Positions 19,495 through 42,037 of a DNA stretch of 51,926 nt are shown piece after piece (the first letter of the stretch is position 1; every line of letters starts with the position of its first letter). The DNA is taken from positions 1 to 51,926 of the forward strand of contig DDLT01000057.1 of NCBI GenBank assembly GCA_002340265.1, in the 5' to 3' direction. The translations under genes and the position numbers were made by a program. A model generated the notes under the pieces. It worked only from the letters and a program-made list of their open reading frames with translations, was not told the origin of the DNA and made no database searches. This DNA comes from Lentisphaeria bacterium UBA2565 (GTDB lineage: Bacteria; Verrucomicrobiota; Lentisphaeria; UBA2565).

Positions 19495-19497
19495 AAC

Positions 19498-20826: not shown

Positions 20827-21051
20827 CTATTGACCGTGAACTCTTATACGTTCAGGTCTTCTGATTAGTAGGTAGAGCAACGCTCCAATCCAGTTCGTCA
20901 GGACGATTATTAAAATCCAGATTAGTTTATCATTTCCCTGATCAGGCTCTTTTGTTGCACAGTCGACTAGCATCCATACCCAAAGTGCAACAGAACCAAC
21001 TCCAATTGCTAAGCATGCTAGCATGAAGACAAGAGCAAAAATTGCAGACAT
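20827..21051 (-). CDS. PLDc_N-type small membrane protein
   Basis: Two TM helices with NDKLIWILIIVLTNWIGALLYLLIRRP, typical of the cardiolipin-synthase N-terminal-like domain. Confidence 0.65.
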   Translation of the reverse strand: MSAIFALVFMLACLAIGVGSVALWVWMLVDCATKEPDQGNDKLIWILIIVLTNWIGALLYLLIRRPERIRVHGQ

Positions 21052-21218: not shown

Positions 21219-23165
21219 ATGACCACAGATTCACAACTACCTCCTGAAGTCGAATTGCATTTGAACGATTCTTATCAAATGGCCTATTCTGAAGAAGAGG
21301 ATGATTTAATTCTAGAAAAACAGCAGAACTTTTCTGAATCACAATATTCGGATAAAGAGCTATATGCCGTTGGTGGAATGAAGATGGTTTCCACGGTTTT
21401 AGATGCTAAAACTGACCGAACTATTGCTTTCGCAGAACTGAAAGAGGGTGTCGATTCAAAAGAAAATGTGGGGCGTTTCTTACGTGAGGCACGAATCACG
21501 GCAGCTTTGGAACATCCTAATATTGTGCCGGTTTATGATGTGGGTGTAAAAGATGACGGTTTACCGTATTTTACGATGAAATTTCTCCAAGGGGAAACGC
21601 TGAAGAAGGTTTTGCGTGAACTTTTAAAATCCAACCCGGTCTATGTGAAGAAATACCCGCTTAACTCTCTCTTAGAAGTTTTTATGAAAATTTGCGAAGC
21701 TGTAGCTTTTGCCCACTCTTGCGGCGTGCTTCACCTCGACATAAAACCTGAAAATATCATGATTGGAAAATATGGAGAGGTGTATCTTTGTGATTGGGGA
21801 ATTGCAAAGATTGTGACTAATCATGAAAATCTTCATACAGGAGTGGCGACGCTTGATGCAGATGTGTTGAATGACATTACCCTAAGTGGAGTCGTTAAAG
21901 GTACGTCGGGTTTTATGGCTCCGGAACAGGTTGACGACTCGTTTGGTAAAAAAGATGTTCAGACGGATGTTTATTCTCTCGGCGCACTTTTCTATAATAT
22001 TTTAAGCTTACGTCAACCTTTTTCTGGTAAATCAGCACAAGAGGTCTTGGAGCTGACTGTGTCTAAGGAGACGTTTTCAAACAGGTTTATGTCGAACTGG
22101 GATGTGACTGATGCGTTGAAGGCGATCTGTTTTAAAGCGGCAAGCACGGTTAAATCGAATAGATACGGTTCTGTTGAAGAGCTGATAGCTGACATTCGTT
22201 TTTATCAAAGTGGCTTTGCTACCAAGGCGGAAGACACCAATTTCCGTAAAGAGTTTTTCCTTTACTTTAAGCGTCACAAGTTTTTGGGATTTGGTATACT
22301 GTTTTTTGTTTTGAGTTTTATTTTAATGTTTGTAGTTGTGAGCCACCTAAGCGAAGAGCGCAGTGTTAACGAGAAGTTGATTGTGGAAGAGAATGAAAAG
22401 ACTGTAGAAAAAATAAAGAGTGCTGCAAAGTCCAGGTTTGCGCGATATGAACGGTCAATCGACAAACTTACCGATTTGCTTAAAGATGAAAAGTTAAAGT
22501 TAGCTGAATTCAAATTGAAGTACGAACCGGTAGCTATCAGCATCAACTTTACCGACGGTGGAGCCGGTTTTTATGCGTCGAAGTCTAATAGAGCAGGAGT
22601 GTATGAACGTGGCTATTGGATGACTCATGCAGGGCGCTGGGAAAGTGGGATATCAACAATAGAATATTTGCGAAATAGTGATGGGGTGGAGACTGAAGTT
22701 GCTTTTCAAATTGCTGAAGGTGCTAGAATTGGAGGAGCTCACGGATCTGACTTTCTAGAGTTAAATAATGACAAAGCCCGCTTTAATAATGTAATGATGG
22801 AGAATTGGACCGACTTTTATGGTACTGCAAGCATTAAGTTTTCAGGACTAAGTAGCTTTGCCTCTGAATATGATGTAATTGTGTATTCTTCTAGACCAAA
22901 CAAAGGTTACAGAGCAAAGTTCTCAATAGAAGATAGACATTTGTTTGTAAATGTGGAAGAAAGACCATCCAGTAGTTTTGTGCGAAGCTCTGCAAGATCT
23001 CTCGAAGAGTTGAGCGAAAATGAAGCATCTACAAATTATGTGGTATTTGAGTCTTTAAAAGGTGACAGTCTTGAACTAAAAATAGAAAATATCTCAAATC
23101 ATTGGGCTGCCATTTCCGGTATTCAAATTGTCCAAAAACAATTACCCATTATTGGTAATCAGTAA
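21219..23165 (+). CDS. Transmembrane Hanks-type Ser/Thr protein kinase with an extracytoplasmic beta-sandwich (malectin/CBM-like) domain
   Basis: HLDIKPENIM, CDWGIAK (DFG equivalent), GFMAPEQ. One TM segment (FLGFGILFFVLSFILMFVVV). C-terminal roughly 250 aa ends ...WAAISGIQIV. Confidence 0.85.
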   Translation: MTTDSQLPPEVELHLNDSYQMAYSEEEDDLILEKQQNFSESQYSDKELYAVGGMKMVSTVLDAKTDRTIAFAELKEGVDSKENVGRFLREARITAALEHPNIVPVYDVGVKDDGLPYFTMKFLQGETLKKVLRELLKSNPVYVKKYPLNSLLEVFMKICEAVAFAHSCGVLHLDIKPENIMIGKYGEVYLCDWGIAKIVTNHENLHTGVATLDADVLNDITLSGVVKGTSGFMAPEQVDDSFGKKDVQTDVYSLGALFYNILSLRQPFSGKSAQEVLELTVSKETFSNRFMSNWDVTDALKAICFKAASTVKSNRYGSVEELIADIRFYQSGFATKAEDTNFRKEFFLYFKRHKFLGFGILFFVLSFILMFVVVSHLSEERSVNEKLIVEENEKTVEKIKSAAKSRFARYERSIDKLTDLLKDEKLKLAEFKLKYEPVAISINFTDGGAGFYASKSNRAGVYERGYWMTHAGRWESGISTIEYLRNSDGVETEVAFQIAEGARIGGAHGSDFLELNNDKARFNNVMMENWTDFYGTASIKFSGLSSFASEYDVIVYSSRPNKGYRAKFSIEDRHLFVNVEERPSSSFVRSSARSLEELSENEASTNYVVFESLKGDSLELKIENISNHWAAISGIQIVQKQLPIIGNQ

Positions 23166-23182
23166 AAAGTTATCTTGTATGT

Positions 23183-23215
23183 CTGTTAACTGCTGACTAC
23201 TTACTGTTAACTGTT
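23183..23215. repeat. Heptad tract (CTG/ACTG every 7 nt); arm flanking the ECF sigma gene stop
   Basis: CT(G/A) trinucleotide (CTG, CTA at 23197) at 23183, 23190, 23197, 23204 and 23211. The reverse complement reads AACAGTT AACAGTA AGTAGTC AGCAGTT. Confidence 0.7.
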
Positions 23216-23803
23216 TTACTCCAGCATTTCACGGAGATTTCTTATTTCCGCATATAATTTCTGCTTTACACGATTTTTATAGATGTAAATTGTGTTCTCT
23301 TCCAAACCGAGCCGTTGAGCTGTTTCTGCAACTGGTTCGTTCCTTAAACTGGCTTGAAAGCACTCCATCGCCTGGGCTGACACTTTTTCTTTAATGGTAT
23401 TGAATGCCCGTTCGGATATATACTTTTCCCATTCATTATGAATTATCTTGTTAATCTCTGCCTTATTGTGACCATCGCTGAATGACTTGAACTCTTCACG
23501 ACTCTTTAAAAGATTTTTATTGGCTTTGATAAAGCTGATAACGGTATTACGGGTAATTGTATAAAGCCAGTTTCTAAAGTAGCCCTTTTTCTGATTATAA
23601 TCGAAGTTCGGAAGTGCCTGCCAAATCTTTAAAAGTGTTTTCTGCGCCAGATCATCACAATCAGACTCATTTACACCCATCTTGATAATTATCGAATAGA
23701 TGAACTTCTTGTAGTAACGATAAAACTCTTCCCACGAACTCTCCGAATCGGAATTCTTGAGTTTCTTGAGCAGTGTTTGTCTTGTGAGATATGTATCAGT
23801 CAT
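23216..23803 (-). CDS. ECF-type RNA polymerase sigma factor (kinase-associated type)
   Basis: Region 2 (DDLAQKTLLKIWQALPNFD...FRNWLYTITRNTVISF) and region 4 HTH (ETAQRLGLEENTIYIYKNRVKQKL). No adjacent anti-sigma gene. Confidence 0.8.
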   Translation of the reverse strand: MTDTYLTRQTLLKKLKNSDSESSWEEFYRYYKKFIYSIIIKMGVNESDCDDLAQKTLLKIWQALPNFDYNQKKGYFRNWLYTITRNTVISFIKANKNLLKSREEFKSFSDGHNKAEINKIIHNEWEKYISERAFNTIKEKVSAQAMECFQASLRNEPVAETAQRLGLEENTIYIYKNRVKQKLYAEIRNLREMLE

Positions 23804-23807
23804 TTTT

Positions 23808-23830
23808 TTCAGTTATCAGTTAGTAGTTAC
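23808..23830. repeat. Heptad tract (TTCAGTT ATCAGTT AGTAGTT); arm flanking the ECF sigma gene start
   Basis: 23810-23827 matches the reverse complement of 23196-23213 at 16 of 18 positions. Confidence 0.7.
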
Positions 23831-24001
23831 ATCTAGCCTTTCGCATCTCGCATCAAAAAAATCAAAAAAACTTAAAAAAGTTGTCCAATAGCAATAAGTG
23901 AAAAGTATACTGGTTTGAATGATTCTTAAAATATCGTGTGATATTTGAATGTCAATTGAATGATTTTTTATAAACAAAAACAACAACATGAGAGGAAGAT
24001 T

Positions 24002-27000
24002 ATGAGTACGTTTCTTAAGAAAGGTATGTTTGCTGGATTGCTTCTGACTGGAAGTATGGCAATGGCTGTTGACTTCACTACAAGTGATGCAACAAACGGT
24101 GATGTGTCACCATATTCAACTACCCCATGGAGTCTAAATAGTAGATTCCAGATTAAGGGGGTGTCGGTTACAGGAGAGAATTCAACGTCAATTAATACGT
24201 CTGCGTTAAGTCCAGTCGCTTACTTGGATGACTTTTCTTCTGCTGGTAACGAGGAAAGTGTCGATGTTTATAAGGGGGCTGGTTATAGCTTTAGCATTAC
24301 GCTTCGTGACAATGTAAATGGAACAGGCTGGATTGATGGACAAGTCTGGGTGGACTGGAACCGTGACGGTGACTGGAATGATGCAGGTGAAGCTCTTGGT
24401 CTAATTGGAAACGGTAGTAATCTAGGGCAACAAGAAAAAGCTTTAGTCAAAATAATCAACGTGCCTAGTGGAGCCGCTACGGGTAAAACACGTATGCGTA
24501 TACGTGTCGCAGATGGTGGTGGAGCACACGACTCAAACATGACTCCAGATAGCAACAGCCCAATTGGTTATGGTTATGCTCAGGATTATACAATTAACAT
24601 CACAGCTCCTGCTGTGGCGACACCTGTACTATCTACGTCATTTACTGATTCAGTTATCAACCTATCATGGACTCAAAATGGAAGTGTTGATAATTTCACA
24701 ATTGAAGTAGCTGAAGATGCTGGTTTCTCAACAATGGTTACTGGATATCCAAAAACTACGGCTGATGATACAGTGTTGTCAGATACTGTGACAGGTCTAA
24801 ATCCAGGGCAAACTTATTATGTTCGAGTTAAGTCTAATTCTGGAGCAGCTAGCTCGCCTTACGCGGTTGACTCTGCACGAATCTATCAGAATAAAGTTAG
24901 CAACGATGGTGTAGATTACTATAACTATACTTGGGGAACAAATCGCTTCCAGATTAGAAATGTACAGACAACTAATGCTTCTGTTAATATTAATTATTCT
25001 GATCCAGATAATCAAAGTGATACAACTAACCCTCCATATTTCTCAGACCATGCCGGTGATGTAGTGCCTGCTCAAGTACTACAGAATAGCTCATTTGATC
25101 TAAGTGTTACTCTTAAGAGATAGAACAAACGGTGGTGGTTGGGCAGCTGGTAAAGTATGGATTGACTGGAATGCTGACGGTGACTGGGATGACGCCAATG
25201 AAGAAATAGGTGAAATGAGCGCTGCTGTCGGTGGCCAGGAAGTTGTATATCCATTCTCAGTAACTGTTCCAGCAGGAACAGCTCTAGGTAATAAGCGTAT
25301 GCGTATTCGCACTAATGACAACTCGACAGCTATTGATCCACACGGAGCCGATGGCAGATCAGGTACAGCACAGGACTACTTGATTGCAGTTGTTGATGTA
25401 GTTCCAGATATCGAAATCACTGGTTACGATGCAATTTCAGATGTACTTGTAAGAGCAAACGATACCGCAGTGGATACAGTTGCTGAAGTTCAGGGGTTAC
25501 TACCTTCTACTGTAACTATTAGCGGAACTTCTGATACGCGTTCCGTAACATGGACTACTGATAGTACTCCTGCTTATGATAACTCTTCGGCTGGTACATA
25601 TGTGTTTACTGCGACTCTTGGTGCAATTCCAAGTGGTTATAAAGACGATACTGCTGAAACTGTAACCGCAAATGTGGTTGTAACTGATTCATTCGGTGTA
25701 GAGGTTTTAACAGCTGCTGACTCAATTGTGTCTACAGCAAATCTTACAGGTACTGCGTTCAGTATGTCAGGATAGATCAAAGTTGATAGCACTGGTGCAA
25801 GAGGTTGTTTTGCGACAATTGGTACAGATGGAACAGATGCAACGGATGTAAATCCAAACGCATTTGGTTTTTGGGTTACGCCATCAACTGGACTATTACA
25901 GTTCTGGAATGGAACATTCACTAGTGTTCCTGTTGAAACCTACGTACTACCAAGAGATCAATGGCTTCACATTGCAATTACTGGATCAACAACGTCATCT
26001 AATAAACTGTATGTGAATGGTACGATGGTATGGGATACCACCGTAAATCAAGGTGCAGTTACTGGCGCAACACTTGAACTAGGTGCGACAAATTCGAATA
26101 ATCCAGATGAATCCATTAGTAAAGTCTCTTATGATGAAATAGCTGTGTTCTCTAAAGAATTAACTGCTCAGGAAGTGTCTGATATTTACGATGGAGGAAC
26201 TGGTCACGAACTGGATTCTTCATATGACAGTATGGAATTATACTGGAGATTTGAGGATGACCCTCAAGCCTCTACAGTTGCCGACAGTGATGATGGCAAT
26301 GACTCTGCAGGAACTATCTCAGGAACACAAGGTACTTCGTTCCGTTGGGTTTCTGGTGTAACAGTAGGTTCTGTAATTACCCCTGCGATCGGTCTTGAAC
26401 TATCTCTTGAAGGTACAGAACTTGTTTGGACCGTTGAAGATGAAGTTGGTGTAAAAGAGTACCGTATTATCAATGCTGCAACTAAAGAGGTTCTAGAAGT
26501 TGTTCTAGCTGTTGATGCAGACTTCTACTCTGTTGAAGTTCCAGAAGGTGTTGAAGTAGAACTTGTGGTTGTTGACGAATCTGGTTTCTCAAAACCTTAT
26601 GCGCCAACTGACGGTAATGTAAAAATCGAGATCTACGACCTTGCAGAAGGTTGGAACTTGATCGCGATCACGTCTGATGATGCGGATCTTGAAACGCTTA
26701 AAGATGAAACCGTCGGCGTACTTTGGGGCTGGAACGGGTTCGCTTACGAAGTAACTGAAACAGCAAGCGCTACAGACGCTGTATGGGTTTACTCTCCAAT
26801 CGCGAAACAGGTTTACGTTTCAGGTACTAAATCTGATACAAAAATCAATCTAAATCTTGGTTGGAACATGGTTGGTCCAGTTACAGAAACTGAAGTTCCA
26901 GCAGAAGCTGCGTCAGTATTCAGCTGGGGCGACAAGATCTACAATACAATTGCTGAAGAACAGGGTGTTCTAATTGGCGGAAAAGGTTACTGGATCTTCT

Positions 27001-27008
27001 CTCTATAA
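24002..27008 (+). pseudogene. Secreted GEVED x2 / Fn3 / Ig-like / LamG protein with the shared C-terminal domain, disrupted by a 1-nt insertion (about 25115) and an in-frame TAG (25773-25775)
   Basis: Track ORFs 23960..25123, 25104..25775 and 26013..27008 join into one protein colinear with 29940..32957. SVTL|RDRTNGGGW repeats the earlier SITLRDNVNGTGW after a +1 shift. The TAG aligns with the conserved LamG Trp (FMTWVNV in the paralogue). Confidence 0.75.
26379..27008 (+). repeat. Shared C-terminal domain module, copy 1
   Basis: TPAIGLELSLEGTELVWTVEDE...EGWNLIAITSDDADLETLKDETVGVLWGWNG...LNLGWNMVGPV...GGKGYWIFSL. Long near-identical nucleotide runs with copies 2 and 3. Confidence 0.85.
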
Positions 27009-27080
27009 GGTTTCAGGTTACAAGTTGTAAGGTTGCAAGTTTTTAACCTGTAACCTTTAACTTTAAAACCTTTAACTTAG
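27009..27080. repeat. Heptad tract that switches from GGTT/AGTT words to AACC/AACT words
   Basis: GGTT or AGTT at 27009, 27016, 27023, 27031 and 27038. AACC or AACT at 27045, 27052, 27059, 27067 and 27074. Confidence 0.7.
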
Positions 27081-27127
27081 ATAAAATTTCTTCTCCCTAG
27101 AATGCGGACGGTTTTCCGCATTCGGTT

Positions 27128-27157
27128 AGCTGCGATCGAAAGGTCGCAGCTTTTTTT
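27128..27157 (+). terminator. Intrinsic terminator
   Basis: AGCTGCGA-tcgaaagg-TCGCAGCT followed by seven T. Confidence 0.8.
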
Positions 27158-27243
27158 GTTTAAACAATTGAACTGCGGTGAGAAGTCGATAGCTTAGAAT
27201 ATCTATTAGATTGAGTTAAACTTTATTTTACATGTTAGTTTTT

Positions 27244-29163
27244 ATGAGTGAATTGGATTTCGACAATTTATCTGAAAGCCTTCAGGACAAACTTCAGGAT
27301 TTTTATCATAGCCCTGAAGAGGAAAGTGAGTCGTCGGTAATTGCAGATGAGTTTTTATCTCTGGAGAAACGCTTCGGGACAAAAACACAGCATGCAAAAG
27401 GCGGTATGAAGCAGGTTTTTAAGGTTGATGACCTTAGAACAAGACGACCTGTGGCACTTGCAGCTTTACGGGATGAAAGCACGGTTTCGAGTGAAAACAT
27501 TGGTCGTTTTTTGCGAGAAGCGCGTATTACAGCGGCTTTGGAACATCCGAACATTGTGCCGATATATGACATTGGTATGGATGAGGTTGGAAAACCGTTT
27601 TTTACAATGAAGTTTCTAAAGGATCAAAGTCTGAAAAAGATTCTAAAGGAGTTGGCAAAACAAAATCCTATTTATACAAAGAAATATACTTTTACCGTAC
27701 TTTTAGATATTTTCATGAAAATCTGCGATGCCGTTGGGTTTGCTCATTCCTGCAAAATTATTCACCTCGATCTGAAACCTGAAAATATTATGATTGGAGA
27801 CTACGGTGAGGTTTATGTCTGCGACTGGGGTCTGGCAAAGCTTCTAGGTTCAGTGGATGAGGATATTACTGGAACTCGCAAACTCGACCCGACAGAATTG
27901 AATTCCTATACGCTTTCCGGAGTTATAAAAGGCACACCCGGTTTTATGGCTCCAGAACAAGTTGATTTAACCTTTGGAACTAAAGATTTTCGAACCGATG
28001 TATATGCTCTTGGCGCGTTGTTGTATGCACTGCTTACTTTTCGACAGCCATTTTATGGATTAAAGAATGATAAGATCCTTGAAAAAACGCTTCATGATTT
28101 GCCAAAGCCAATTGAAGAGTTGAGTTATCGACCTGTACCGGAGGGCATTACTGCAATCTGCCGAAAAGCAATGGCAAAAAATCCTGATATTAGATATCAA
28201 AATGTGAATCAGTTAATTAAAGATATCCGCTTTTTCCAGGAAGGTTTCGCGACAAAGGCTGAAGAAATTACAATTAAAAAATCATTGGTACTTTCTTATA
28301 AACGTAACAAATTCAAATATGTTGTTTTTTCTTTGATTGCGACTTTCTCGTTAATTGCATACTTTGCGATTTCCACTAAAATGGATTCAATGCAAAAAGA
28401 TTTCGATGCAAAATATCAGCAACTTAGTGACAAGAAAGATCAAAAATTTGAGAAGTTTAGAGAACGCGCATTAAAAAGTTCTTCAAAATTGAAAAAGAGT
28501 TTGAGTCAGTCAGCTGTGTCGTACGAATCGTTAGAGAAAAACTATGACAACATTGTGCTAAGTCCTCCGTTATTTGTCGGAGACGGGATAACCTTTGAGG
28601 CTAATGGCTCGGCGCTTGCTGATGAAAATTTCATTTTTCGTTCTGGAACACTTTCTTTCTGGTTTAAAATTAAAGAAGGTTCAGCCAATCAAGTGTCATT
28701 CTTCCAGCTGGGAAATATGAAATGGTATCTCGATAACCGTAAAGGGCAAGACAAAGTTAGCGTTAAGGGGGCATCGGTTGCTTTTTCATCTAAAATCTTG
28801 GGTAACTCACAATGGGAAGGCTGGCACCACTTTGCCTGTACGGTTTTGAAAAGCGGAGTTGTAATGCTTTACCTCGATGGAAATTCTCAGTACATAGGAG
28901 CTATTTATGATGGTAAGCAACTAGGGATGAGTTTAGGTGCAGTCGTTTCAACGACAGTAATTCCAAGTTTCAGTGGAAGTTTAGATGAGATTACAGTTTG
29001 GCAAAAGGTCCTCTCGCCGAATGATATAAAGATGCTGCATCATAAAGGAATTAGAGGCGATGAAGAAGGATTAAAAGCCTACTATAACCTTAATAAAGAC
29101 CTTAAAGATTCTGTAGGTAATGAACCCGAATTGAAAGTGCTGGGAAAAATTCGTTTCGATTAA
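27244..29163 (+). CDS. Transmembrane Hanks-type Ser/Thr protein kinase with an extracytoplasmic LamG-like domain
   Basis: HLDLKPENIM, CDWGLAK, GFMAPEQ. TM segment YVVFSLIATFSLIAYFAI. LamG pattern GTLSFWFKIK...WHHFACTV...MLYLDGNS...GSLDEITVWQKVLS. Track start 27232 is also possible. Confidence 0.85.
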   Translation: MSELDFDNLSESLQDKLQDFYHSPEEESESSVIADEFLSLEKRFGTKTQHAKGGMKQVFKVDDLRTRRPVALAALRDESTVSSENIGRFLREARITAALEHPNIVPIYDIGMDEVGKPFFTMKFLKDQSLKKILKELAKQNPIYTKKYTFTVLLDIFMKICDAVGFAHSCKIIHLDLKPENIMIGDYGEVYVCDWGLAKLLGSVDEDITGTRKLDPTELNSYTLSGVIKGTPGFMAPEQVDLTFGTKDFRTDVYALGALLYALLTFRQPFYGLKNDKILEKTLHDLPKPIEELSYRPVPEGITAICRKAMAKNPDIRYQNVNQLIKDIRFFQEGFATKAEEITIKKSLVLSYKRNKFKYVVFSLIATFSLIAYFAISTKMDSMQKDFDAKYQQLSDKKDQKFEKFRERALKSSSKLKKSLSQSAVSYESLEKNYDNIVLSPPLFVGDGITFEANGSALADENFIFRSGTLSFWFKIKEGSANQVSFFQLGNMKWYLDNRKGQDKVSVKGASVAFSSKILGNSQWEGWHHFACTVLKSGVVMLYLDGNSQYIGAIYDGKQLGMSLGAVVSTTVIPSFSGSLDEITVWQKVLSPNDIKMLHHKGIRGDEEGLKAYYNLNKDLKDSVGNEPELKVLGKIRFD

Positions 29164-29165
29164 GA

Positions 29166-29744
29166 CTACTCAAGAAAGTCTCTAAGATTTTTAATCTCAG
29201 CAGTGAGCGCGTTTTTAACCCGCATTTTATATACGTAAACACTATTTTCTGACAAGCCGTGCTTCTTTGCAGTAACTTCAGTTTTCTCTCCCTCAAGGCT
29301 TGCCAAAAACACCTGCATTGCAACTTCCGATACCTTTTCTTTTACTGTATTGAAGGCCAGTGCGGAGATGTGCTTTTCCCATTCATCCCTGATAATGCGG
29401 TCTACTTCCGGCTTGCTGTACTTCTCATCAATCGCAACCACATTCTGCTTTTTGATCTTTCCTTCAGAAATAAAGTTCAAAACCGTATTTTGCGTCACTT
29501 TATAAAGCCAACTTCTAAACTGGCCTTGAGCCTGATTATAATCAAAATTCGGGATTGCCTTCCACACTTTAAGCAGAACACGTTGAAACAAATCATCAGA
29601 ATCCGAATCACTAATCCGCATCTTATTAAAAATCGAAAAGATAAAGCGACGATAATAGTGAACAAATTCCTCCCATGACAACTCGTCATCAGCAGACTTA
29701 AGGCGCTTAAGCAGTGTTTCTCTAGTTAAATATGTGTCAGCCAT
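29166..29744 (-). CDS. ECF-type RNA polymerase sigma factor, paralogue of 23216..23803
   Basis: Same length and motifs (DDLFQRVLLKVWKAIPNFD, FRSWLYKVTQNTVLNF, SENSVYVYKMRVKNAL). Its stop lies 2 nt from the kinase stop. Confidence 0.8.
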   Translation of the reverse strand: MADTYLTRETLLKRLKSADDELSWEEFVHYYRRFIFSIFNKMRISDSDSDDLFQRVLLKVWKAIPNFDYNQAQGQFRSWLYKVTQNTVLNFISEGKIKKQNVVAIDEKYSKPEVDRIIRDEWEKHISALAFNTVKEKVSEVAMQVFLASLEGEKTEVTAKKHGLSENSVYVYKMRVKNALTAEIKNLRDFLE

Positions 29745-29939
29745 AATTACATTTATATATTTATTTCCAAAAAAGTGTAAGGATCTTATAATTGTCCTGT
29801 AGTCTGAAGTGAAGATTGAAAAATAGAACTAGTATTCAACCTTTCTAACATGCTGAAAAAAGTTCTAAAGTCAATGCCGTATGTGCTTAATCGGTATCGT
29901 AAAGAAATCTTTTACCAAAAATTAACAGGAGTAAACAAA

Positions 29940-32900
29940 ATGGGAATGAAGAAAACGTTGGCGGCACTTCTCTGTGCTACAGGTTTAATGAGTATGAACC
30001 TTCAAGCGGGGGTTACCGAAAACTTTGATAGTGCATCCTTAGGGACTATCGAGGCAGATGGTTCAACAACAATTAATGGAACTGTTTATATCGGTTCCTC
30101 TGCTGATACAACTAACAGTACGGGAGCGCCTACAAATCCTTATCCTACACAAATCAAAAATAGTGGTGGTGATGGCTATATTTCTTTGTGGTGTGAGGAT
30201 GATACTAAAGGAAATATTGGTTGGGATGCCGTAACTGGTGAACCTACGAGTGCAACACCAGTTAGCAATGTAGTAATTGACTTTGGTGCCGATGCCAATA
30301 AAGATGTGGTAAGCTTCTCGGCTGATATCTCTCGTAGTTCTAACGGTGCGTGGTGGTATCGTGTTCAAAGTTCAATTGATAATGGAACGACTTGGCAGTC
30401 TATCAAACAAATTTCTGGTAGGATTACTACAGGTACTTTAGCTATAAATGAATCAGGCCTCAGTCTTACAGGTGTTGATAGAATTCGTATTAATGTCTGG
30501 CGAAATGGAGGTACTGACCCAGGTGAAATGAAAATTGACAACCTTGTTGTGTATAATGTTTTGACAACAGGTCTTACAGCAACAGCTCCCGTTGGAACTG
30601 ACTTTGACCTAAGTTGGGATGCAGCAACTGGCGCAACTGGATACACTGTAGTAGTTTCTACAAAAGCTGACCTTTCTAACCCTGTTCAGACATACACTCC
30701 TGTGGGCACTTCTCAATCAGTTACAGGTCTTTCTAGTGGTTCTCTTTACTACTGTGGGGTGACTGCAGTTATAGGCGGAAGTGTTGCCAGTACAGCAACC
30801 ACTGTTGTTGACCTTAGACCAAAGGAAGCACTAGCTGCAGGTGATGTGATTGCGGTTGACTATGCTTCCGCTAATGGTAGTGCGACAAACTTCAATATCC
30901 TTGATACTGGTGCGACATCAATTACAAGCGGCAATGTGGTAAAATACTCAGGCACAGCTGTTGCTCAGAATGTAACCGTTACCCACACTGGTGGAGGTAA
31001 TTTTGCGAGAGACTCAGGTGGTGACAATTGGGGTGGAGTGGCTGCTGATCCATACTACAATTCTGAGGCTGCCGGTGATATTGTTTATGCCGGAGTTCAA
31101 ACAGTATTTGGTGGACTTGACACCAATCTTGCTTATAATGTTCGTGTATATGCACTTCTTGTTGGTGGACCTCAAAGTAACAACATTACGGTAACTGGTG
31201 AGAGTGTAGCTACTGATACTACAAACAGTCGCACCCGCTTTACTTACGGGACTCTTGAAGAGGCAGGTCTAGTCTTCTCAAATGTAGTTCCAACTGCCGG
31301 CGGTGAGATTACTATTGGTGCTGAAGTATTCTATAATGCAATCGTAATTGAAGCAGTGACTCCTGCACCAGCGGTCGTAGAAATTACTGGTTATGAAGCA
31401 ATTGAAGACGTGGCTGTAAGGTCTGGTGATACTGCAGTAGATACACTTGCTGAGGTTCAGGCTCTACTGCCTTCTACTGTGACAATTGATGGAACGTCTG
31501 ATACACGTGACGTCACTTGGACTACAGATAGTGTTCCATCTTATGATAACTCTTCGACTGGGACATACGTGTTTACCGCAACTCTCGGCGCAATCCCAGA
31601 GGGCTATACAGATGACCCAGCTGAAACAGTGACTGCAAATGTAATTGTAACAGATACATTTGGTGTGGAAATCACTGATGGAGCTGACTCCCAGATCACA
31701 TCCCCTTACAATTTGAGTGGCGATGATATGACTTTTATGACTTGGGTCAATGTGCCTTCAGGAACTCCGCTAAGTACATTCTTTACTATGGAAGAGAATG
31801 GAGTCGCGCAGGCACGCATGGGACTCTATCTCCAATCTTCTACAGCAGGTGACAGCAGTACTGATTTCGGCTATTTTGCAGGAAGTGGCAGTGAAAATTA
31901 TTCAACGGCTTTCCCTCTTGATAGTTGGGTTCATTTAGCAATTGTGACAAAAATAGATGGCACTACTGCAATTTACATTAATGGTGTTTCAGAGACAGGA
32001 GCTAAAACAAATCTACGTACTACGACTATTAATAATGCGTTGCTGAAATTGAATAATAGTGGTACTCCAGTTAATGGAGCGATTTACGATGAAGTAGCAG
32101 TATTCTCCAGAGCATTGACTTCAGCTCAAATTACTGATATTTACAATTCAGGAACCGGTGCTGAACTAGATTCTGCTTATGCAGGAATGGAGCTTTACTG
32201 GCGATTTGAGGATGAGCCTCAAGCTTCTACTGTTGCCGATAGCGATAATGATGCTGACAGTGCCGGAACAATCTCAGGTTCATCATTTAACTGGGTGCTA
32301 GGTAAATCTGTGGGTGAAACAGTTACACCTGCGATTGGTCTTGAAGTGTCTCTTGAAGGTACAGAACTTGTATGGGCAGTTGAAGACGAAGTAAGTGTTC
32401 AAGCATACGAAGTGACTTATACACTTAACGGTGAACCTAAAACTCAAACTGTTCTAGCTGTTGATGCTGACTTCTACACTGTAGACCTTCCAGAAGGTGC
32501 AACTGATGTAAAACTTGTTGTAGTAGACAAATCAGGCTACCGCGATACTAACCTTCCAGAAGATGGTAATGTGAAGATTGAGGTTTACGACCTTGAAGAG
32601 GGTTGGAACTTGATTGCTATCACATCTGAAGATGCTGACCTTGAAACTCTTAAAGATGAAACTGTCGGCGTACTTTGGGGCTGGAACGGTTCTGGTTACG
32701 AAGTAATCGAAACTGCAAAAGCTACAGATGCTGTATGGGTTTACTCTCCAATTGCGAAACAGGTATACATTTCAGGTACTAAATCTAATGCGAAGATCAA
32801 GTTAAACCTTGGTTGGAACATGGTTGGTCCAGTTGAAAATGGCTACATTCCAGAAAAAGCTGATACAGTTTACAGCTGGAGTGCAGTGTATGACTTAATC

Positions 32901-32957
32901 GCCGGCGAAGACAAAGTGCTTATCGGTGGAAAAGGTTACTGGATCTTCTCTCTATAA
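29940..32957 (+). CDS. Secreted multidomain protein: CBM-like, Fn3, Ig-like, LamG, shared C-terminal domain
   Basis: ATG at 29940 follows AGGAG. Signal peptide MGMKKTLAALLCATGLMSMNLQAG. LamG pattern WVHLAIV...IYINGV...YDEVAVFSRALT. C-terminal ...GGKGYWIFSL. Confidence 0.85.
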   Translation: MGMKKTLAALLCATGLMSMNLQAGVTENFDSASLGTIEADGSTTINGTVYIGSSADTTNSTGAPTNPYPTQIKNSGGDGYISLWCEDDTKGNIGWDAVTGEPTSATPVSNVVIDFGADANKDVVSFSADISRSSNGAWWYRVQSSIDNGTTWQSIKQISGRITTGTLAINESGLSLTGVDRIRINVWRNGGTDPGEMKIDNLVVYNVLTTGLTATAPVGTDFDLSWDAATGATGYTVVVSTKADLSNPVQTYTPVGTSQSVTGLSSGSLYYCGVTAVIGGSVASTATTVVDLRPKEALAAGDVIAVDYASANGSATNFNILDTGATSITSGNVVKYSGTAVAQNVTVTHTGGGNFARDSGGDNWGGVAADPYYNSEAAGDIVYAGVQTVFGGLDTNLAYNVRVYALLVGGPQSNNITVTGESVATDTTNSRTRFTYGTLEEAGLVFSNVVPTAGGEITIGAEVFYNAIVIEAVTPAPAVVEITGYEAIEDVAVRSGDTAVDTLAEVQALLPSTVTIDGTSDTRDVTWTTDSVPSYDNSSTGTYVFTATLGAIPEGYTDDPAETVTANVIVTDTFGVEITDGADSQITSPYNLSGDDMTFMTWVNVPSGTPLSTFFTMEENGVAQARMGLYLQSSTAGDSSTDFGYFAGSGSENYSTAFPLDSWVHLAIVTKIDGTTAIYINGVSETGAKTNLRTTTINNALLKLNNSGTPVNGAIYDEVAVFSRALTSAQITDIYNSGTGAELDSAYAGMELYWRFEDEPQASTVADSDNDADSAGTISGSSFNWVLGKSVGETVTPAIGLEVSLEGTELVWAVEDEVSVQAYEVTYTLNGEPKTQTVLAVDADFYTVDLPEGATDVKLVVVDKSGYRDTNLPEDGNVKIEVYDLEEGWNLIAITSEDADLETLKDETVGVLWGWNGSGYEVIETAKATDAVWVYSPIAKQVYISGTKSNAKIKLNLGWNMVGPVENGYIPEKADTVYSWSAVYDLIAGEDKVLIGGKGYWIFSL
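32325..32957 (+). repeat. Shared C-terminal domain module, copy 2
   Basis: Colinear with 26379..27008 and 36407..37027. The homology continues about 50 nt past the stop into copy 3's 3' UTR. Confidence 0.85.
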
Positions 32958-33055
32958 TCGTCCTATGTATTACGTAGTACGCACTACGTAGCACTTATTA
33001 CGAAATAAAAAATGCTCTCTCCCTGGATGGGGTGTGTTGTCCCGTCCGTTCTTAT

Positions 33056-33084
33056 GGCTACGACTGAAAGGTCGTAGCCTTTTT
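33056..33084 (+). terminator. Intrinsic terminator
   Basis: GGCTACGAC-tgaaag-GTCGTAGCC followed by TTTTT. Confidence 0.8.
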
Positions 33085-33145
33085 GGGTATTGATTGCTGT
33101 AAATGTACAGAAAGAGTTTATTAAAATAATAATAGGATACTAAAA

Positions 33146-36100
33146 ATGGGAATAAAAAAGGCGTTGACGGCTTTATGCTGTGCGGTGGGGATAACAGGTT
33201 CTCTTTTTGCAACAACGGCATTGGAAATTGTTAATGGAGCAAGTGGCTATGTTGAAAGTCAGAGAAATATCACAGGTTCCACATTTACCTCCATTATGTG
33301 GGTGAAGATGAATCCGACCGGAGGCAATGGAGCACTTTATGGTCTAGGTTCTTCCTCGACTAATGCAAATACAGCATTTTGGGTTAACAGTTCGGGAACA
33401 TTAACGTTTTACAATAAATGGCCGGAAGGGTATGCCACTAATGACGGTTTGATGACAAGTCATTTTAATAAATGGACACATTTAGCATTTGTCGGAGTTG
33501 CCGGCGAAGGCGTTAAAGTTTATATAAACGGTACTCTGGCTTGGACAGTTACAGATACAAAATCAACTGCCGTGGCACAGGATATTACTGCCAATGGCTT
33601 TGTGACTCTAGGCCGAAACTTAGACGGATTAGAACCACAAAATGGAACATCCTATGACGAATTCTCTCTGTGGAGTAAAGCGTTTTCAGATGCGGAAGTC
33701 TTAGCAAACTACAACAATGGAGGCGGCACTGAATTCACAGGAAGTGAGCAAAATCTTGAACTTTATTGGAAGTTTGAAGATGGTGCCGGAAGTGCAATTG
33801 CAACCGATTCTTCACAGCAAGCTCGTAACGGTTCTATCGCTGGAACAGAGGGAACGGATTATAAATGGACATTCAGTAAAGATGTCACAATTTATGACGA
33901 TTTTGAAAATGGTTATGCTAAATGGACTGCAACAGGAACTGCATTTGGTTCAAATCCTATCAACACTGCAACCACCAACAGCAGTGGCTATTATGCGATT
34001 AGTATAAATGACAGCTCAGCGACAGGACTGTTGACATCAGAAACCTTTACTGTTGATAAAGATTTTATTAACTTCAAACTAACAGGTGGAGCAGAACCGA
34101 CTCAGGGAATTCGCTTGGTTATTGGTGGAACACCCGTTATAACTTGGTCAGGAAATGTGGGCTGGGGTAGCGCAAATGTGGCCAATTTTATCTTAGAATC
34201 ATGGGATGTTAGTGACTATAAAGGACAAACAGCTCACTTTGAAATCTTTGATAATGGATCTGATGCCAAAGATTGGGTTGCCGTTGATGATATCACTTTT
34301 TCGACAAAAGCGTTACAAAAGGGAACAGTTTTCGAACTACAACAGCCAAGTTATATGGAGTGGCATTACACTAAACGCATGGCAAATTTTGCTACGAACG
34401 ACAGTTCTGTTCCAACAAACTCTACAGTTTTATTGGGTGACTCAATCACAGAAGTCTTTCCAATGGGAAATGCTCCGGCTAGATGGAATCTTGTGAACCG
34501 TGGAATTCAGGGTGACTGTGTTGGTGGTTGGAAATACCTTGGACTTTATGATCGTCTTCAAGAGTGCGTATATCAACATCAGCCAGCGAATGTTTTCATC
34601 GCCATTGGTATTAACGATATTGTACAATGGTACCCTAGTTACGGAACATCAGCGACCGTTGATCAACTAGAGGCAGGCTACAAAGCCATTGTTGAAGGTA
34701 TTCAAGCAAATAGTCCTAGTACAAAGATCTATCTACAAACGGTTCTACCAACCACTGGGCAATATGCAGAGTATAATGACGAAGTAATAGCTGTCAATAC
34801 ACGCATTGCCAAAGTAGCAACAGAAACAGGTGTAAACTTTCTTGATACCCATAGCGACTTTAAAAATAGTTCAGGAGAGCTTGAAGCGGCATACAGTAGT
34901 GATGGTATCCATTTAACAAGTGCGGGGTATGCAGTCTGGTATGCTGCTCTAACAAAAGTTTTAGATGGACAAGAAGAACAAGTGGAGTTCGAGACTGCAA
35001 AAGAGATTACCTTAGAAGGTTACGATTCCAAAACTTTTGAGACTCCAACAAATCCTTCAAACGGAACTCTGACTCCAGCAGCCGACTTTACAACAAGCGG
35101 TAAAGTGACTTACACTCCAAATTCGGGTTATTCCGGTGCTGACAGCTTCACCTACACAGTTACAGGAGACAGCCGTCCATTTACGGTTTATATCAATGTA
35201 GAAGAATCACCAGCAAACATCCCGGGTCCGGCAATAGGAAAATCACTACAGATTACATCAACTACTGCTGATACAGGGCAGGTAGTTAAAGATTTGTCGG
35301 CTCACACGGCTCTGAATGAACTGACCTTCGAGTTCTGGGCTAAAGTTCCTACTGCTGCAAACTCCAAAAACTGGGTATCGTTGATAATGCTTGAATCGTC
35401 TATGGCTCCAGTAGGCTTGGCTATGGGGGGCACAGGAGGCTTGGTTCCTTACACAGGAGGGAACGCACACAACTATATTAATATTGATGATAGATTTTTG
35501 AACCAATGGCATCATTATGCAATTACTATAGAATTATCCGCAACTGGCGATCCTATACCTGCCGACAAAAATGAGGCTGGACGCAGAGCTACTAGAGTTT
35601 ACATAGATGGTTATAATATTTTCACGGAACAGAATGAGCTACGTTTTGTTTCCAGCATTGGGGATTTGAGTTCATCATGGGGGAATGGTAGCAATGGATA
35701 CCCTGCAGTTATTGATTTGGGTGACCTTACATGCGGTGGATGGACTTCTGGAGCGACTTTTGAGATTGATGAAATTCGTATCTGGAAAGAAGCGCGTACA
35801 CAGACGCAAATTCGTGAAAATATGAATAGAACTAATGTCAATGGAGCTAATCTACTTGTTAATTACAAATGTGATGGAGATACCGCTGACCTTGTTGATT
35901 CTTCCAGTACAGGTAGCACTGCGACTAATGTCGTAACAGGTAACTTAGGTCGTACGACAAGTTACGCTCAAGTATTTGATGCCTCTCCTTTATCTGGCTG
36001 GAATTTCCCAGATTCGATTGGGGAAAGCAAAACCGCAACACGTACTGACGGCGGACTTAAAGTTGATAATGCAACCGTGACAGCGGGAGATTATGTAGTT

Positions 36101-37027
36101 GAAACTGCTATTAACAGTAGCGAAGAGGTGGTCACAACAGAGCTACCTATTGGCATTGTTGAGCGTTTTGAACGTGAATGGTTTGTGCAGGAAGTTGGAA
36201 CTGTCGTCGCTGACATGACCTTTGATACCACAAATATTGTTGACACTTTACCAGCTCAAAGCGAAGCAAAACTTCTTTATCGCTCTACAACTTCTGAAGA
36301 TTTCACAGAAGTGGCAACAGCCTCTTCATCTAACGGCAATGAGTTCACATTCTCTTCAGTATCCTTTATGTCAGGTTATTATACTTTCGGTGCATCGACA
36401 ACCCTTACTCCTTCGATTGGTCTTCAGGTTTCGCAAACTGATGATGAATTGACTTGGACAGTTGAAGATGAAATTGGTGTGAAAGAGTACCAAATCTTCG
36501 TTGACGGTGAACTTTTCGATATAGTTCAAGCTGTGGATGCTGACTTCTACTCTTTAGAAGTTCCAGTAGATGCAAAAGTCGAACTTAAAGTTGTTGATGA
36601 GTCCGGTTATTCTAAGACTTACCTTCCGCAAGATGGCAATACGACAATTGAAGTCTACGACCTTGAAGAGGGTTGGAATTTGGTTGCTATCACTTCGGAT
36701 AAAGCAGATTTAGAAACACTTAGGAATGAAACAGTCGGCGAACTTTGGGGCTGGAACGGTTCCGGTTACGAAGTGGTTGAAACAGCAAAAGCGACAGATG
36801 CAGTTTGGGTATACTCTCCAATTGCAAAACAGGTTTACATTTCAGGTACTAAATCTGATGCGAAGATCAAGTTGAACCTTGGTTGGAACATGGTTGGTCC
36901 AGTTGAAAATGACTTCATTCCAGAAGGTGCTGATACAGTATACAGTTGGAGCGAAGTGTACGATGTAATCGCCGGTGAAGACAAAGTCCTAATCGGCGGA
37001 AAAGGTTACTGGATCTTCTCTCTATAA
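33146..37027 (+). CDS. Secreted multidomain protein: LamG, beta-sandwich, SGNH/GDSL hydrolase, cadherin/Ig-like, LamG, shared C-terminal domain
   Basis: Signal peptide MGIKKALTALCCAVGITGSLFA. SGNH blocks LLGDSITE, GINDI, DGIHLT. LamG patterns (FTSIMWVKM...WTHLAFV...VYINGT; LTFEFWAKV...WHHYAITI...FEIDEIRIW). Ends GGKGYWIFSL. Confidence 0.85.
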   Translation: MGIKKALTALCCAVGITGSLFATTALEIVNGASGYVESQRNITGSTFTSIMWVKMNPTGGNGALYGLGSSSTNANTAFWVNSSGTLTFYNKWPEGYATNDGLMTSHFNKWTHLAFVGVAGEGVKVYINGTLAWTVTDTKSTAVAQDITANGFVTLGRNLDGLEPQNGTSYDEFSLWSKAFSDAEVLANYNNGGGTEFTGSEQNLELYWKFEDGAGSAIATDSSQQARNGSIAGTEGTDYKWTFSKDVTIYDDFENGYAKWTATGTAFGSNPINTATTNSSGYYAISINDSSATGLLTSETFTVDKDFINFKLTGGAEPTQGIRLVIGGTPVITWSGNVGWGSANVANFILESWDVSDYKGQTAHFEIFDNGSDAKDWVAVDDITFSTKALQKGTVFELQQPSYMEWHYTKRMANFATNDSSVPTNSTVLLGDSITEVFPMGNAPARWNLVNRGIQGDCVGGWKYLGLYDRLQECVYQHQPANVFIAIGINDIVQWYPSYGTSATVDQLEAGYKAIVEGIQANSPSTKIYLQTVLPTTGQYAEYNDEVIAVNTRIAKVATETGVNFLDTHSDFKNSSGELEAAYSSDGIHLTSAGYAVWYAALTKVLDGQEEQVEFETAKEITLEGYDSKTFETPTNPSNGTLTPAADFTTSGKVTYTPNSGYSGADSFTYTVTGDSRPFTVYINVEESPANIPGPAIGKSLQITSTTADTGQVVKDLSAHTALNELTFEFWAKVPTAANSKNWVSLIMLESSMAPVGLAMGGTGGLVPYTGGNAHNYINIDDRFLNQWHHYAITIELSATGDPIPADKNEAGRRATRVYIDGYNIFTEQNELRFVSSIGDLSSSWGNGSNGYPAVIDLGDLTCGGWTSGATFEIDEIRIWKEARTQTQIRENMNRTNVNGANLLVNYKCDGDTADLVDSSSTGSTATNVVTGNLGRTTSYAQVFDASPLSGWNFPDSIGESKTATRTDGGLKVDNATVTAGDYVVETAINSSEEVVTTELPIGIVERFEREWFVQEVGTVVADMTFDTTNIVDTLPAQSEAKLLYRSTTSEDFTEVATASSSNGNEFTFSSVSFMSGYYTFGASTTLTPSIGLQVSQTDDELTWTVEDEIGVKEYQIFVDGELFDIVQAVDADFYSLEVPVDAKVELKVVDESGYSKTYLPQDGNTTIEVYDLEEGWNLVAITSDKADLETLRNETVGELWGWNGSGYEVVETAKATDAVWVYSPIAKQVYISGTKSDAKIKLNLGWNMVGPVENDFIPEGADTVYSWSEVYDVIAGEDKVLIGGKGYWIFSL
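36407..37027 (+). repeat. Shared C-terminal domain module, copy 3
   Basis: TPSIGLQVSQTDDELTWTVEDE...EGWNLVAITSDKADLETLRNETVGELWGWNG...GGKGYWIFSL. Confidence 0.85.
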
Positions 37028-41693: not shown

Positions 41694-41972
41694 ATGAAAT
41701 ACCTATTTTTTATACCATTTATTACACTTTTTATTCTGCTGTCGTTTTCGGCTTTGTCGGAGTACAATCGCTATTGCGGTGCCGTATCCGAATACAAAGA
41801 AGTCGATTGTGAACTTGCGGAACTTGATAGCGAGTGTAATAAAATCAAACAGCTGATTCGCGACTTGAAGGAAAATCCACGTGCGGTTGAACGCGTGGCC
41901 CGCGAAGACTTCGGCTGGTGCCGTGAAGGCGAGAAGATTTATAATTTCTCTTCTCCATCTCAGTGGCAATAA
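41694..41972 (+). CDS. ftsB: Septum formation initiator (FtsB/DivIC family)
   Basis: N-terminal TM, coiled coil, and C-terminal NPRAVERVAREDFGWCREGEKIY, typical of FtsB. Confidence 0.7.
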   Translation: MKYLFFIPFITLFILLSFSALSEYNRYCGAVSEYKEVDCELAELDSECNKIKQLIRDLKENPRAVERVAREDFGWCREGEKIYNFSSPSQWQ

Positions 41973-42037
41973 TTCCTCCTATACTACCGAGCGTGGTAGC
42001 TTCCTCCCTTTTTTACAGTTTAACAGGATATGATATT

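Follow-up and report, generated by a model that had tools for sequence, protein, structure and literature searches.

Two kinase–sigma factor–secreted protein units stand in tandem at positions 21219–37027 of the window, by which we mean the whole 51,926-nucleotide stretch analysed here (contig DDLT01000057.1 of the Lentisphaeria bacterium UBA2565 assembly GCA_002340265.1). Each unit encodes a single-pass receptor Ser/Thr kinase (K1, K2), an extracytoplasmic function (ECF) sigma factor (S1, S2), and large exported proteins that we call cargo (C1 in module 1; C2 and C3 in module 2), with coordinates collected in Table 1. Each sigma gene is convergent with its own kinase gene, from which it is separated by 50 nt (S1/K1) or 2 nt (S2/K2), and divergent from a cargo gene across a head-to-head spacer of 198 nt in module 1 and 195 nt in module 2. 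Direct DNA repeats between the two modules fall in a single register of 5941–5967 nt (period ~5.95 kb), and the 3′ end of the cargo gene is met a third time 4070 nt further on, inside C3. A first-pass annotation made from the sequence alone had drawn attention to this twice-repeated, three-part arrangement; its observations were confirmed in part, and its interpretation is partly supported. The tandem layout is borne out, as are the gene coordinates except for the start of K2, which lies at 27232, position 27244 being the second Met.

Table 1. Genes and candidate regulatory elements of the tandem region (positions in the window)
Feature	Position	Strand	Evidence
K1, single-pass receptor Ser/Thr kinase, 648 aa	21219..23165	+	Pfam Pkinase, hydropathy, PknB alignment
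S1, ECF sigma factor, 195 aa	23216..23803	-	Sigma70_r2, 56 bits; TIGR02937, 71.8 bits
Candidate ECF-type promoter of cargo 1, TGTCCA-N17-GTATAC	23882..23910	+	TGTMM-N18-GT match
Cargo 1 (C1), pseudogene	24002..27008	+	Three open reading frame fragments, Pfam, homology to C2
Intrinsic terminator after cargo 1, 10-bp stem and T-run	27128..27151	+	Near-copy of the post-C3 terminator
K2, single-pass receptor Ser/Thr kinase, 643 aa	27232..29163	+	Pfam Pkinase, Laminin_G_3, hydropathy
S2, ECF sigma factor, 192 aa	29166..29744	-	Sigma70_r2, 49 bits; TIGR02937, 68.1 bits
Candidate ECF-type promoter of C2, TGTAAG-N17-GTAGTC	29776..29804	+	TGTMM-N18-GT match
C2, secreted protein, 1005 aa	29940..32957	+	Pfam, BLAST, signal-peptide-like N-terminus
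Intrinsic terminator between C2 and C3	33056..33079	+	Hairpin
C3, secreted protein, 1293 aa	33146..37027	+	Pfam, BLAST, signal-peptide-like N-terminus
Intrinsic terminator after C3	37120..37143	+	Hairpin

S1 and S2 share 54% identity over their full length (E=7e-80), and K1 and K2 share 52% across the cytoplasmic 340 aa (E=6e-113). The proposed paralogy of both pairs therefore holds for the whole of the sigma factors and for the cytoplasmic half of the kinases, not for the kinase outer domains, which are unrelated. Judged from the protein identity between copies (~52–60%), the tandem duplication is old, and the cargo of module 1 has decayed since. Anti-sigma genes, reported as missing in the first-pass annotation, are indeed absent: the intergenic room is too small for one, the list of open reading frames (ORFs) and Pfam and NCBIfam searches gave none in or between the module genes, and no ORF or domain of the classical types (ASD/ZAS, RskA, FecR) occurs in the modules.

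Both kinases match Pfam Pkinase (121.7 bits for K1 and 117.5 bits for K2) and carry one hydrophobic transmembrane segment each by hydropathy (K1 residues 352–380, nt 22272–22358; K2 residues 361–382), giving a topology in which an N-terminal cytoplasmic kinase domain (~residues 45–340 in K1) is followed by the membrane segment and a C-terminal outer domain of ~265 residues. The extracytoplasmic domain of K1 (residues 381–648, nt 22359–23162) has no Pfam match at E<0.06 and is 30% identical to the outer domain of a kinase from a related locus (L008). That of K2 is a Laminin_G_3 (LamG) domain (residues 461–600, nt 28612–29031; 45.6 bits in Pfam).

The active sites depart from the bacterial norm in a regular way. 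K1 carries Lys55 in its Gly-loop, Ala72 at the position of the β3 lysine, H172-L-D174, and D192-W-G, and the corresponding motifs of K2 are Lys60, Ala77, H178-L-D180, and D198-W-G. When 55 nonredundant partner kinases (K1, K2, and 53 others, from loci L003–L090) were aligned to PknB, the catalytic β3 Lys was found replaced by Ala in 54 and by Gly in one, and all 55 had Lys at the third Gly-loop position (GGMK); HLD takes the place of HRD, and DWG that of DFG. The αC Glu E59, D138, K140, N143, and the Mg-binding D156 (PknB numbering) are present in 57/57 sequences. Two ordinary kinases encoded at the same loci served as an internal control and read GGMG, VAVK, HGD, and DFG. Among the 120 nearest database relatives together with K2, 82 display the K/A/L signature, 5 are near-variants, and 34 have the canonical G(A)/K/R combination; no mixed K/K or G/A form occurs in this set, in which loss of the β3 Lys co-varies with gain of the Gly-loop Lys and loss of the HRD Arg.

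K1 and K2 thus combine the Pkinase fold, catalytic Asp/Lys/Asn, DxG, and αC Glu of Hanks-type Ser/Thr kinases with the absence of the canonical β3 "VAIK" lysine. Because the catalytic residues are otherwise invariant and the lysine exchange co-varies strictly, real catalysis is favored over a pseudokinase scaffold: these kinases are probably active, with the ATP-binding Lys apparently moved to the Gly-loop. In the alignment, this Lys falls at the position equivalent to G55 of PKA and K233 of WNK1, the arrangement seen in WNK kinases, which a 2007 survey described as the sole functional eukaryotic-type kinase family without the β3 Lys (PMC1821047). Unlike WNK, K1 and K2 are bacterial and PknB-like, have lost the HRD Arg as well (HLD), and have DWG in place of DFG. 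Since the best matches in the PDB are to PknB (E ~1e-31) and no WNK is found among the 60 matches listed, the trait is convergent, a strict three-way covariation of Gly-loop Lys, β3 Ala, and HLD that would repeat the WNK solution in bacteria. No prior description of a bacterial WNK-like kinase was found in the searchable literature, a partial library whose silence is not proof of novelty.

The relocated lysine is also found outside the sigma-linked kinases. A 428-aa kinase of Lentisphaerota bacterium ZTH (CP119760.1; L093, 5001–6287) carries the same signature in a tig-clpP-clpX-kinase context with no sigma gene nearby. The notion that the relocation is limited to sigma-linked kinases was rejected on the strength of this housekeeping kinase downstream of clpX, and the trait either predates the sigma-linked receptor kinases or is independent of them.

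S1 and S2 are ECF (group 4) sigma-70 factors, both scoring well above the 42.9-bit cutoff of TIGR02937 (sigma70-ECF); their Sigma70_r4_2 matches are weak. The first-pass annotation had associated them with the ECF43 type. In that group, S/QTTA with a conserved phospho-acceptor Thr has replaced the acidic DAED/DxxD motif of region 2.2, and phosphorylation of this Thr brings back the missing negative charge (PMC13147305, PMC8999054). The ECF43 label fails. Region 2.2 keeps the DxxDxxQ pattern in S1 (DCDDLAQ) and S2 (DSDDLFQ), and across 79 nonredundant family members the acidic residues and glutamine are conserved at 91% (D/E48), 92% (D/E50), 100% (D/E51), and 100% (Q54), with no conserved Ser or Thr inside the motif. 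Conserved hydroxyl residues lie outside it: T7 and T10 (99%) belong to an N-terminal TRxTLL motif, and S168 to sigma-4. E. coli RpoE has a Thr at the position aligned with T7, so that these residues may have a structural rather than a regulatory role. With the acidic patch intact, the ECF43 activation mechanism cannot apply to these proteins, and a fully competent sigma factor would rather need an inhibitor (PMC8999054).

What the window does share with the ECF43 systems of V. parahaemolyticus (EcfP/PknT) and X. citri (EcfK/PknS) is an ECF sigma gene beside a gene for a single-pass transmembrane Ser/Thr kinase of Hanks type, without an anti-sigma factor. ECF43 pairs control a nearby output locus (PMC13147305, PMC8999054), polymyxin resistance or a type VI secretion system, in contrast to the secreted glycan-active proteins found here. 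The kinases differ too, as PknS has the canonical motifs GxGGMG, HRD, and DFG (PMC13147305). The earlier statement that kinase control has been demonstrated for a single Vibrio system is outdated, given that the X. citri EcfK/PknS pair and a pair from Hyphomonas have also been tested (PMC13147305, PMC8999054).

Several other kinase-linked groups are on record, ECF59–62, 217, 267, and 283, a number of which belong to planctomycetes, keep a DAED-like motif, and have no described mechanism (PMC7826278, PMC8999054). The window sigmas resemble ECF59, ECF61, ECF62, and ECF217 in belonging to the Planctomycetes-Verrucomicrobia-Chlamydiae (PVC) superphylum, in their kinase linkage without an anti-sigma factor, in the DAED-like motif, and in being experimentally uncharacterized (Casas-Pastor et al. 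2021, PMC7826278; PMC8999054). By taxonomic range and DAED retention, the window family is consistent with these PVC groups. Rhodopirellula sallentina, the species from which the ECF62 reference protein comes, has a truncated member of the family: in strain SM41 (L088, 9881–10258), a remnant of 125 aa lies by a gene for a β-helix-like secreted protein and has no adjacent kinase gene. As a family that keeps the patch missing from ECF43, these sigma factors offer a defined case in which to ask by what means other ECF groups with a linked kinase operate.

The three cargo genes each begin with a signal-peptide-like segment and end in the same ~215-residue C-terminal domain (CTD). Between these, C1 encodes two GEVED domains, fn3, Big_4, and a LamG-like segment; C2 has fn3, Big_4, and a LamG-like segment (~residues 573–760); and C3 has an N-terminal LamG-like segment, an SGNH/GDSL esterase (430–597), Big_9, and Laminin_G_3 (~721–889). 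The description of the cargo as LamG-type is confirmed by Pfam for C3 only (Laminin_G_3, 30.0 bits against a cutoff of 27.6 when the segment is scanned alone). In C1 and C2, the LamG-like segments stay below the Pfam gathering score and are visible by BLAST to C3 only (E 6e-17 to 1e-20), the remaining domains being GEVED, fn3, Big_4, Big_9, and SGNH. The kinase outer domains were considered as close paralogues of the cargo LamG regions and rejected as such, the similarity being weak and at superfamily level (E 0.005–0.07). To call the function of the cargo undescribed is too strong, as the SGNH domain here and GH95, GH29, GH20, GH2, SASA, and sulfatase domains in relatives point to carbohydrate-active enzymes (CAZymes) and esterases alongside lectin-like proteins.

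Cargo 1, taken in the first-pass annotation for a secreted-protein gene, is a pseudogene. It consists of three ORF fragments and shows 60–77% homology to C2, with a frameshift within 25104–25123 and an in-frame TAG (TGG>TAG) at 25773–25775, where the paralogues have Trp (FSMSG*IKV vs FMTWVNV). The TAG is also present in a JGI contig (L001) that is 100% identical over 25611–34661; this contig may share the sample of the window, and it lends the TAG weak independent support. No intact orthologue of cargo 1 was found, the best candidates (P0032, P0033) being C2-like.

The CTD (C1 nt 26352–27005, C2 nt 32301–32954, C3 nt 36380–37024) is 60–69% identical among the cargo proteins. Over this part the DNA of the three genes is 74–90% identical, including the last 30 nt and the terminator hairpins, and the remainder of C2 and C3 shares only ~29% protein identity. 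Such high identity suggests gene conversion or very strong constraint. The domain had been described as shared and private to these proteins; shared it is, private it is not. At E<=1e-3, an exhaustive profile search retrieved 1116 representative proteins, a number that falls to 259 at E<=1e-10 and to 177 at E<=1e-30; a word-indexed search had given 5 relatives only. The domain thus ends at least 177 clusters, most of which are LamG proteins or CAZymes. In essentially all matches listed, the domain forms the extreme C-terminus of proteins 190 to 2200 residues long, most of which end in YWIFSL or a near variant, with an N-terminal hydrophobic leader in 96 of 145. Laminin_G_3 was present in 24 of 46 such proteins scanned, and other partners in this set include fn3, GEVED, Big_9, SASA acetylesterase, BNR_assoc_N, β-helix, CBM96, GH18, GH2, and CBM6/35. 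Among module relatives, the CTD is restricted to the close clade.

An AlphaFold model of the CTD from a 26-sequence alignment (predicted local distance difference test (pLDDT) 93, predicted template modelling score (pTM) 0.86) displays an FN3-like domain followed by a β-rich domain of ~125 residues; an earlier model from six sequences was poor (pLDDT 62). Foldseek returned nothing from the PDB at E<=0.001, the FN3 half alone aligning weakly, and no Pfam or NCBIfam family matched, the models for T9SS CTD, PEP-CTERM, and similar signals included. Like T9SS CTD, PEP-CTERM, and LPXTG, the domain is a conserved module at the extreme C-terminus of diverse secreted proteins within one lineage. Unlike them, it is much larger, at 215 residues, and lacks a hydrophobic or basic tail, ending in GYWIFSL. 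A role in surface retention or sorting is probable from this placement, and the domain can serve as a marker for many exported proteins of this uncultured lineage.

A candidate promoter was sought in the spacers between sigma and cargo genes. Of 11 related spacers, 7 (6 of the 10 that are independent) contain the pattern TGT[AC][AC]-N18-GT on the cargo strand and 0 contain it on the opposite strand; among 5000 shuffled sets none reached 7, the maximum being 4. These statistics are optimistic, because the pattern was settled on with the data already in view. Its only intergenic matches in the window (written TGTMM-N18-GT in Table 1) are those upstream of cargo 1 and C2. L095 holds a diverged version of module 2, and its orthologous spacer keeps the boxes GTGTAAGGAT and CCTGTAGTCTGAA but differs in the 17 nt between them. 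The elements resemble the promoters read by the ECF sigma factors X, W, and M of B. subtilis (TGnAAC-N16/17-CGTa). The shared candidate motif is found upstream of cargo 1 and C2 and is absent upstream of the sigma genes and of C3, which lies behind the post-C2 terminator. The three terminators are near-identical (AGCTGCGATCGAAAG[G/T]TCGCAGCT and a T-run), one for each cargo gene, with another conserved hairpin ahead of each. Another word, TTGTCC-N9-AAGTGAA, exact in the two window spacers only, was at first taken for the promoter. It was rejected, since it is not conserved in the L095 orthologue and does not occur in related loci, and its copy downstream of C2 falls within a 3′ hairpin.

The arrangement recurs widely in relatives. 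S2 and K2 are identical in three other metagenome contigs with the same neighbors, and close sigma homologues (45–57% identity) have the layout of the window, with the triad found twice each in L008 and L092 and once each in L043, L044, L045, and L095. One of the two sigma genes of L008 is divergent from a gene for a 1914-aa GH95+GEVED+CTD protein and convergent with a kinase gene, and the second is divergent from one for a LamG+CTD protein. In L045, genes for a LamG+CTD protein and a GH29 fucosidase+LamG+CTD protein diverge from the sigma gene, with a convergent kinase whose outer domain is LamG; the cargo is LamG in L044 and LamG+Big_9 in L043. Upstream of the L095 module lie genes for GEVED+LamG and SASA+LamG proteins. 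Throughout this close clade, at loci with enough sequence, the gene divergent from the sigma gene always encodes a LamG, GEVED, or CAZyme protein, usually with the CTD. The type of sensor tracks the type of cargo: a K1-type outer domain accompanies GEVED cargo (module 1 of the window; L008), and a LamG outer domain accompanies LamG cargo (module 2; L044; L045).

L092, another contig of JGI sample 3300010012 (GC 40.4%), bears two further sigma–kinase pairs, whose neighbors encode GH20, GH20 together with a 1380-aa LamG-CTD protein, and GH2. The CTD of the 1380-aa protein is 78.5% identical to that of C3, and L092 is likely a sister contig of the window. Because it adds two modules from the same sample, the organism or its population would have at least four.

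A profile scan of GTDB species genomes, for which a broader alignment was used after that of the close sigma homologues had given no matches, placed the sigma family in PVC lineages only. Hosts include Lentisphaera marina (at least nine loci), metagenome-assembled genomes (MAGs) of Lentisphaerales, Pontiella, Verrucomicrobiota, Pirellulaceae, Fuerstiella, and an Akkermansia MAG, and the nearest named relatives of the window sigma and kinase proteins belong to Lentisphaerota, Kiritimatiellota, and Verrucomicrobiota. A family kinase adjoins the sigma gene at almost every metagenome locus of sufficient length. In named PVC genomes, the sigma gene is directly beside a family kinase gene in 33 of 48 cases and within one gene of it in 38 of 48, and sigma–kinase–sigma–kinase arrays occur in Lentisphaera marina (L056, L079) and a Planctomycetota MAG (L059). 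Neighbors in the wider family include a sulfatase, GH2+CBM6, an acetyl-xylan esterase with NPCBM, a GH31-like protein, and some unrelated genes. These data support the earlier view of a modular, duplicating kinase–sigma unit attached to exported carbohydrate-type proteins.

We propose, with moderate confidence, that each unit is a glycan-sensing signaling module of a marine PVC-superphylum bacterium of Lentisphaerota/Kiritimatiellota type, which switches on the adjacent gene for a secreted glycan-active protein. The single-pass receptor kinase would display a variable, lectin-like C-terminal domain beyond the cytoplasmic membrane (LamG in K2, a domain of unassigned family in K1), to which a ligand would bind, presumably a fragment of a polysaccharide from algae or a host. 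The cytoplasmic kinase domain of the ligand-bound receptor would then act on its partner ECF sigma factor, whose gene lies tail-to-tail with that of the kinase, either by phosphorylation at a site other than that used in ECF43 or by holding and releasing an intrinsically active sigma factor. Once activated, the sigma factor would transcribe the divergent neighbor from the ECF-type promoter (TGTMM-N17/18-GTa), and the product would be a Sec-exported multidomain protein that binds or degrades glycans and ends in the lineage-specific CTD. We infer regulation of the cargo from three features taken together: the conserved synteny, the match between sensor and cargo type, and the candidate promoter.

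Several points weigh against this proposal. The full acidic patch of the sigma factors puts the only proven activation mechanism, that of ECF43, out of consideration. The promoter pattern is post hoc and is missing from 4 of the 11 related spacers and upstream of the C3, sigma, and kinase genes, the rejected word TTGTCC-N9-AAGTGAA, itself not conserved in L095, would place the two window spacers in another register, and k-mer enrichment upstream of 80 family sigma genes gave no convincing family-wide, autoregulatory motif. Cargo 1 is dead with K1 and S1 intact, so that this pair may be in decay or may serve other targets. Outside the close clade, the very high density of CAZyme genes in these genomes makes adjacency by chance more frequent.

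The same evidence can be read in other ways. The kinase could be a membrane-anchored, anti-sigma-like tether that takes the place of an anti-sigma factor, with ligand binding, with or without autophosphorylation, freeing an intrinsically active sigma factor. A sigma factor that keeps DxxDxxQ should bind RNA polymerase unaided, the kinase is laid out in the membrane like a classical anti-sigma factor (cytoplasmic domain at the N-terminus, a single membrane segment, external sensor at the C-terminus), and the canonical β3 Lys is absent, all of which would suit such a tether. We nonetheless regard it as unlikely, for the rest of the catalytic site does not vary, a Lys at the WNK position makes up for the missing one and co-varies strictly with its loss, and an anti-sigma domain signature is lacking. 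Less probable still is that the sigma–kinase pair is a general envelope or stress unit with its regulon elsewhere, its adjacency to the cargo reflecting the high density of glycan-active genes and co-duplication of the segment. Heterogeneous neighbors in the wider family (HZS_alpha-domain and DUF6288/HEAT proteins; housekeeping genes in L052 and L053) and the varying orientation of the sigma gene relative to the kinase gene between loci would be expected of such a unit, and it would account for a C3 gene behind a terminator without a candidate promoter and for the loss of cargo 1 beside intact K1 and S1. It is harder to reconcile with the unbroken association of LamG, GEVED, or CAZyme genes with the sigma gene in the close clade, with the tracking of cargo type by sensor type, and with a strand-specific shared motif located in exactly these spacers.

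It is very improbable that the locus is a decaying relic, in which an old duplication has lost the output of module 1 and the system may be nonfunctional in this organism. The two inactivating lesions in cargo 1 speak for decay, as do breaks in related loci: the K2 orthologue of L095, from a related strain or species (6573–8503; 80% identical), is split into ORFs of 315 and 334 aa, corresponding to the kinase and LamG parts, by a frameshift or an assembly error, and in L042 (1–2776) the expected cargo site beside the sigma homologue P0002 is broken into ORFs of 35–89 aa, through decay or poor assembly. Breaks in short metagenome contigs may, on the other hand, be assembly errors, K1, S1, K2, S2, C2, and C3 are intact ORFs with their catalytic and family residues conserved, and several independent samples contain S2 and K2 proteins without a single difference.

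Extended beyond the window, the glycan-sensing reading leads to a more tentative proposal, which we hold as a possibility rather than an expectation. A dedicated clade of receptor kinases with a relocated lysine and interchangeable lectin-type outer domains could act as polysaccharide sensors of these CAZyme-rich bacteria across Lentisphaerota, Kiritimatiellota, Verrucomicrobiota, and Planctomycetota, switching on individual glycan-degrading loci through ECF sigma factors that keep their acidic patch, by a phosphorylation or release mechanism distinct from that of ECF43. Such a system would be the PVC counterpart of polysaccharide utilization locus (PUL) regulation in Bacteroidota, where ECF sigma/anti-sigma pairs and hybrid two-component regulators form many paralogous units beside the glycan genes they control and sense glycans extracytoplasmically. 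In the PVC modules, the place of the anti-sigma factor or histidine kinase is taken by a Hanks kinase, and SusC/SusD genes are lacking; the likeness would be one of function, not homology. PVC bacteria, among them Lentisphaera, Pontiella/Kiritimatiellales, and marine Verrucomicrobiota, play a major part in breaking down recalcitrant sulfated and fucose-rich algal polysaccharides and possess hundreds of CAZyme and sulfatase genes, for which a multicopy, conserved kinase–sigma unit whose sensor varies with its cargo is a concrete candidate regulator. Kinase-linked ECF systems as such are already known. For the systematic linkage to CAZyme and CTD cargo, the CTD itself, the relocated, WNK-like kinase lysine, and a kinase–ECF–CAZyme link in PVC bacteria, we could not find a description in the partial library mentioned above, with the same reservation as to novelty.

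The modules lie in core chromosome, with gyrB and gyrA upstream and parE, parC, mcsA, and mcsB downstream, at a GC content of ~40% throughout; no hallmarks of mobile elements were seen around them, and Rfam and tRNA scans of the window gave no matches. Further upstream, two adjacent genes for small proteins of 192 and 177 aa (5999–7128) have weak zinc-ribbon matches and no family, and they neighbor two genes for large proteins (1226–3451 and 4054–6051), one with no family match and one with a weak match to DUF4034. The gyrB and gyrA genes (12484–18167) are parted by a gene of the "23S rRNA-intervening sequence protein" family (15084–15440; Pfam, 115 bits). Directly upstream of K1, 18430–20825 encodes a RhuM-family protein, a UPF0020/N6_N4_Mtase methyltransferase-like protein, and a small ArfB-like protein with an RF-1 domain. 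A 74-aa ORF with two transmembrane segments (MSAIFALVFMLACLAIG...WILIIVLTNWIGALLYLLIRRPE; 20827–21051, minus strand) separates the gene for the ArfB-like protein from K1 and may resemble small membrane proteins of the PLD-nuclease N-terminal type (PLDc_N). Directly downstream of C3, 37255–39216 encodes a 653-aa fusion of a WecA/MraY-type Glycos_transf_4 region and an EPS_sugtrans/WcaJ-like polyprenyl glycosylphosphotransferase region. The second type II topoisomerase pair (parE/parC-like, 41963–46336) follows 24 kb downstream, so that the modules lie between both pairs. It is succeeded at 46372–48035 by two paired genes, one mcsA-like with a UVR motif and one mcsB-like of the ATP:guanido phosphotransferase type; this protein-arginine kinase system, best known from Firmicutes, is thus present in a genome of PVC type.

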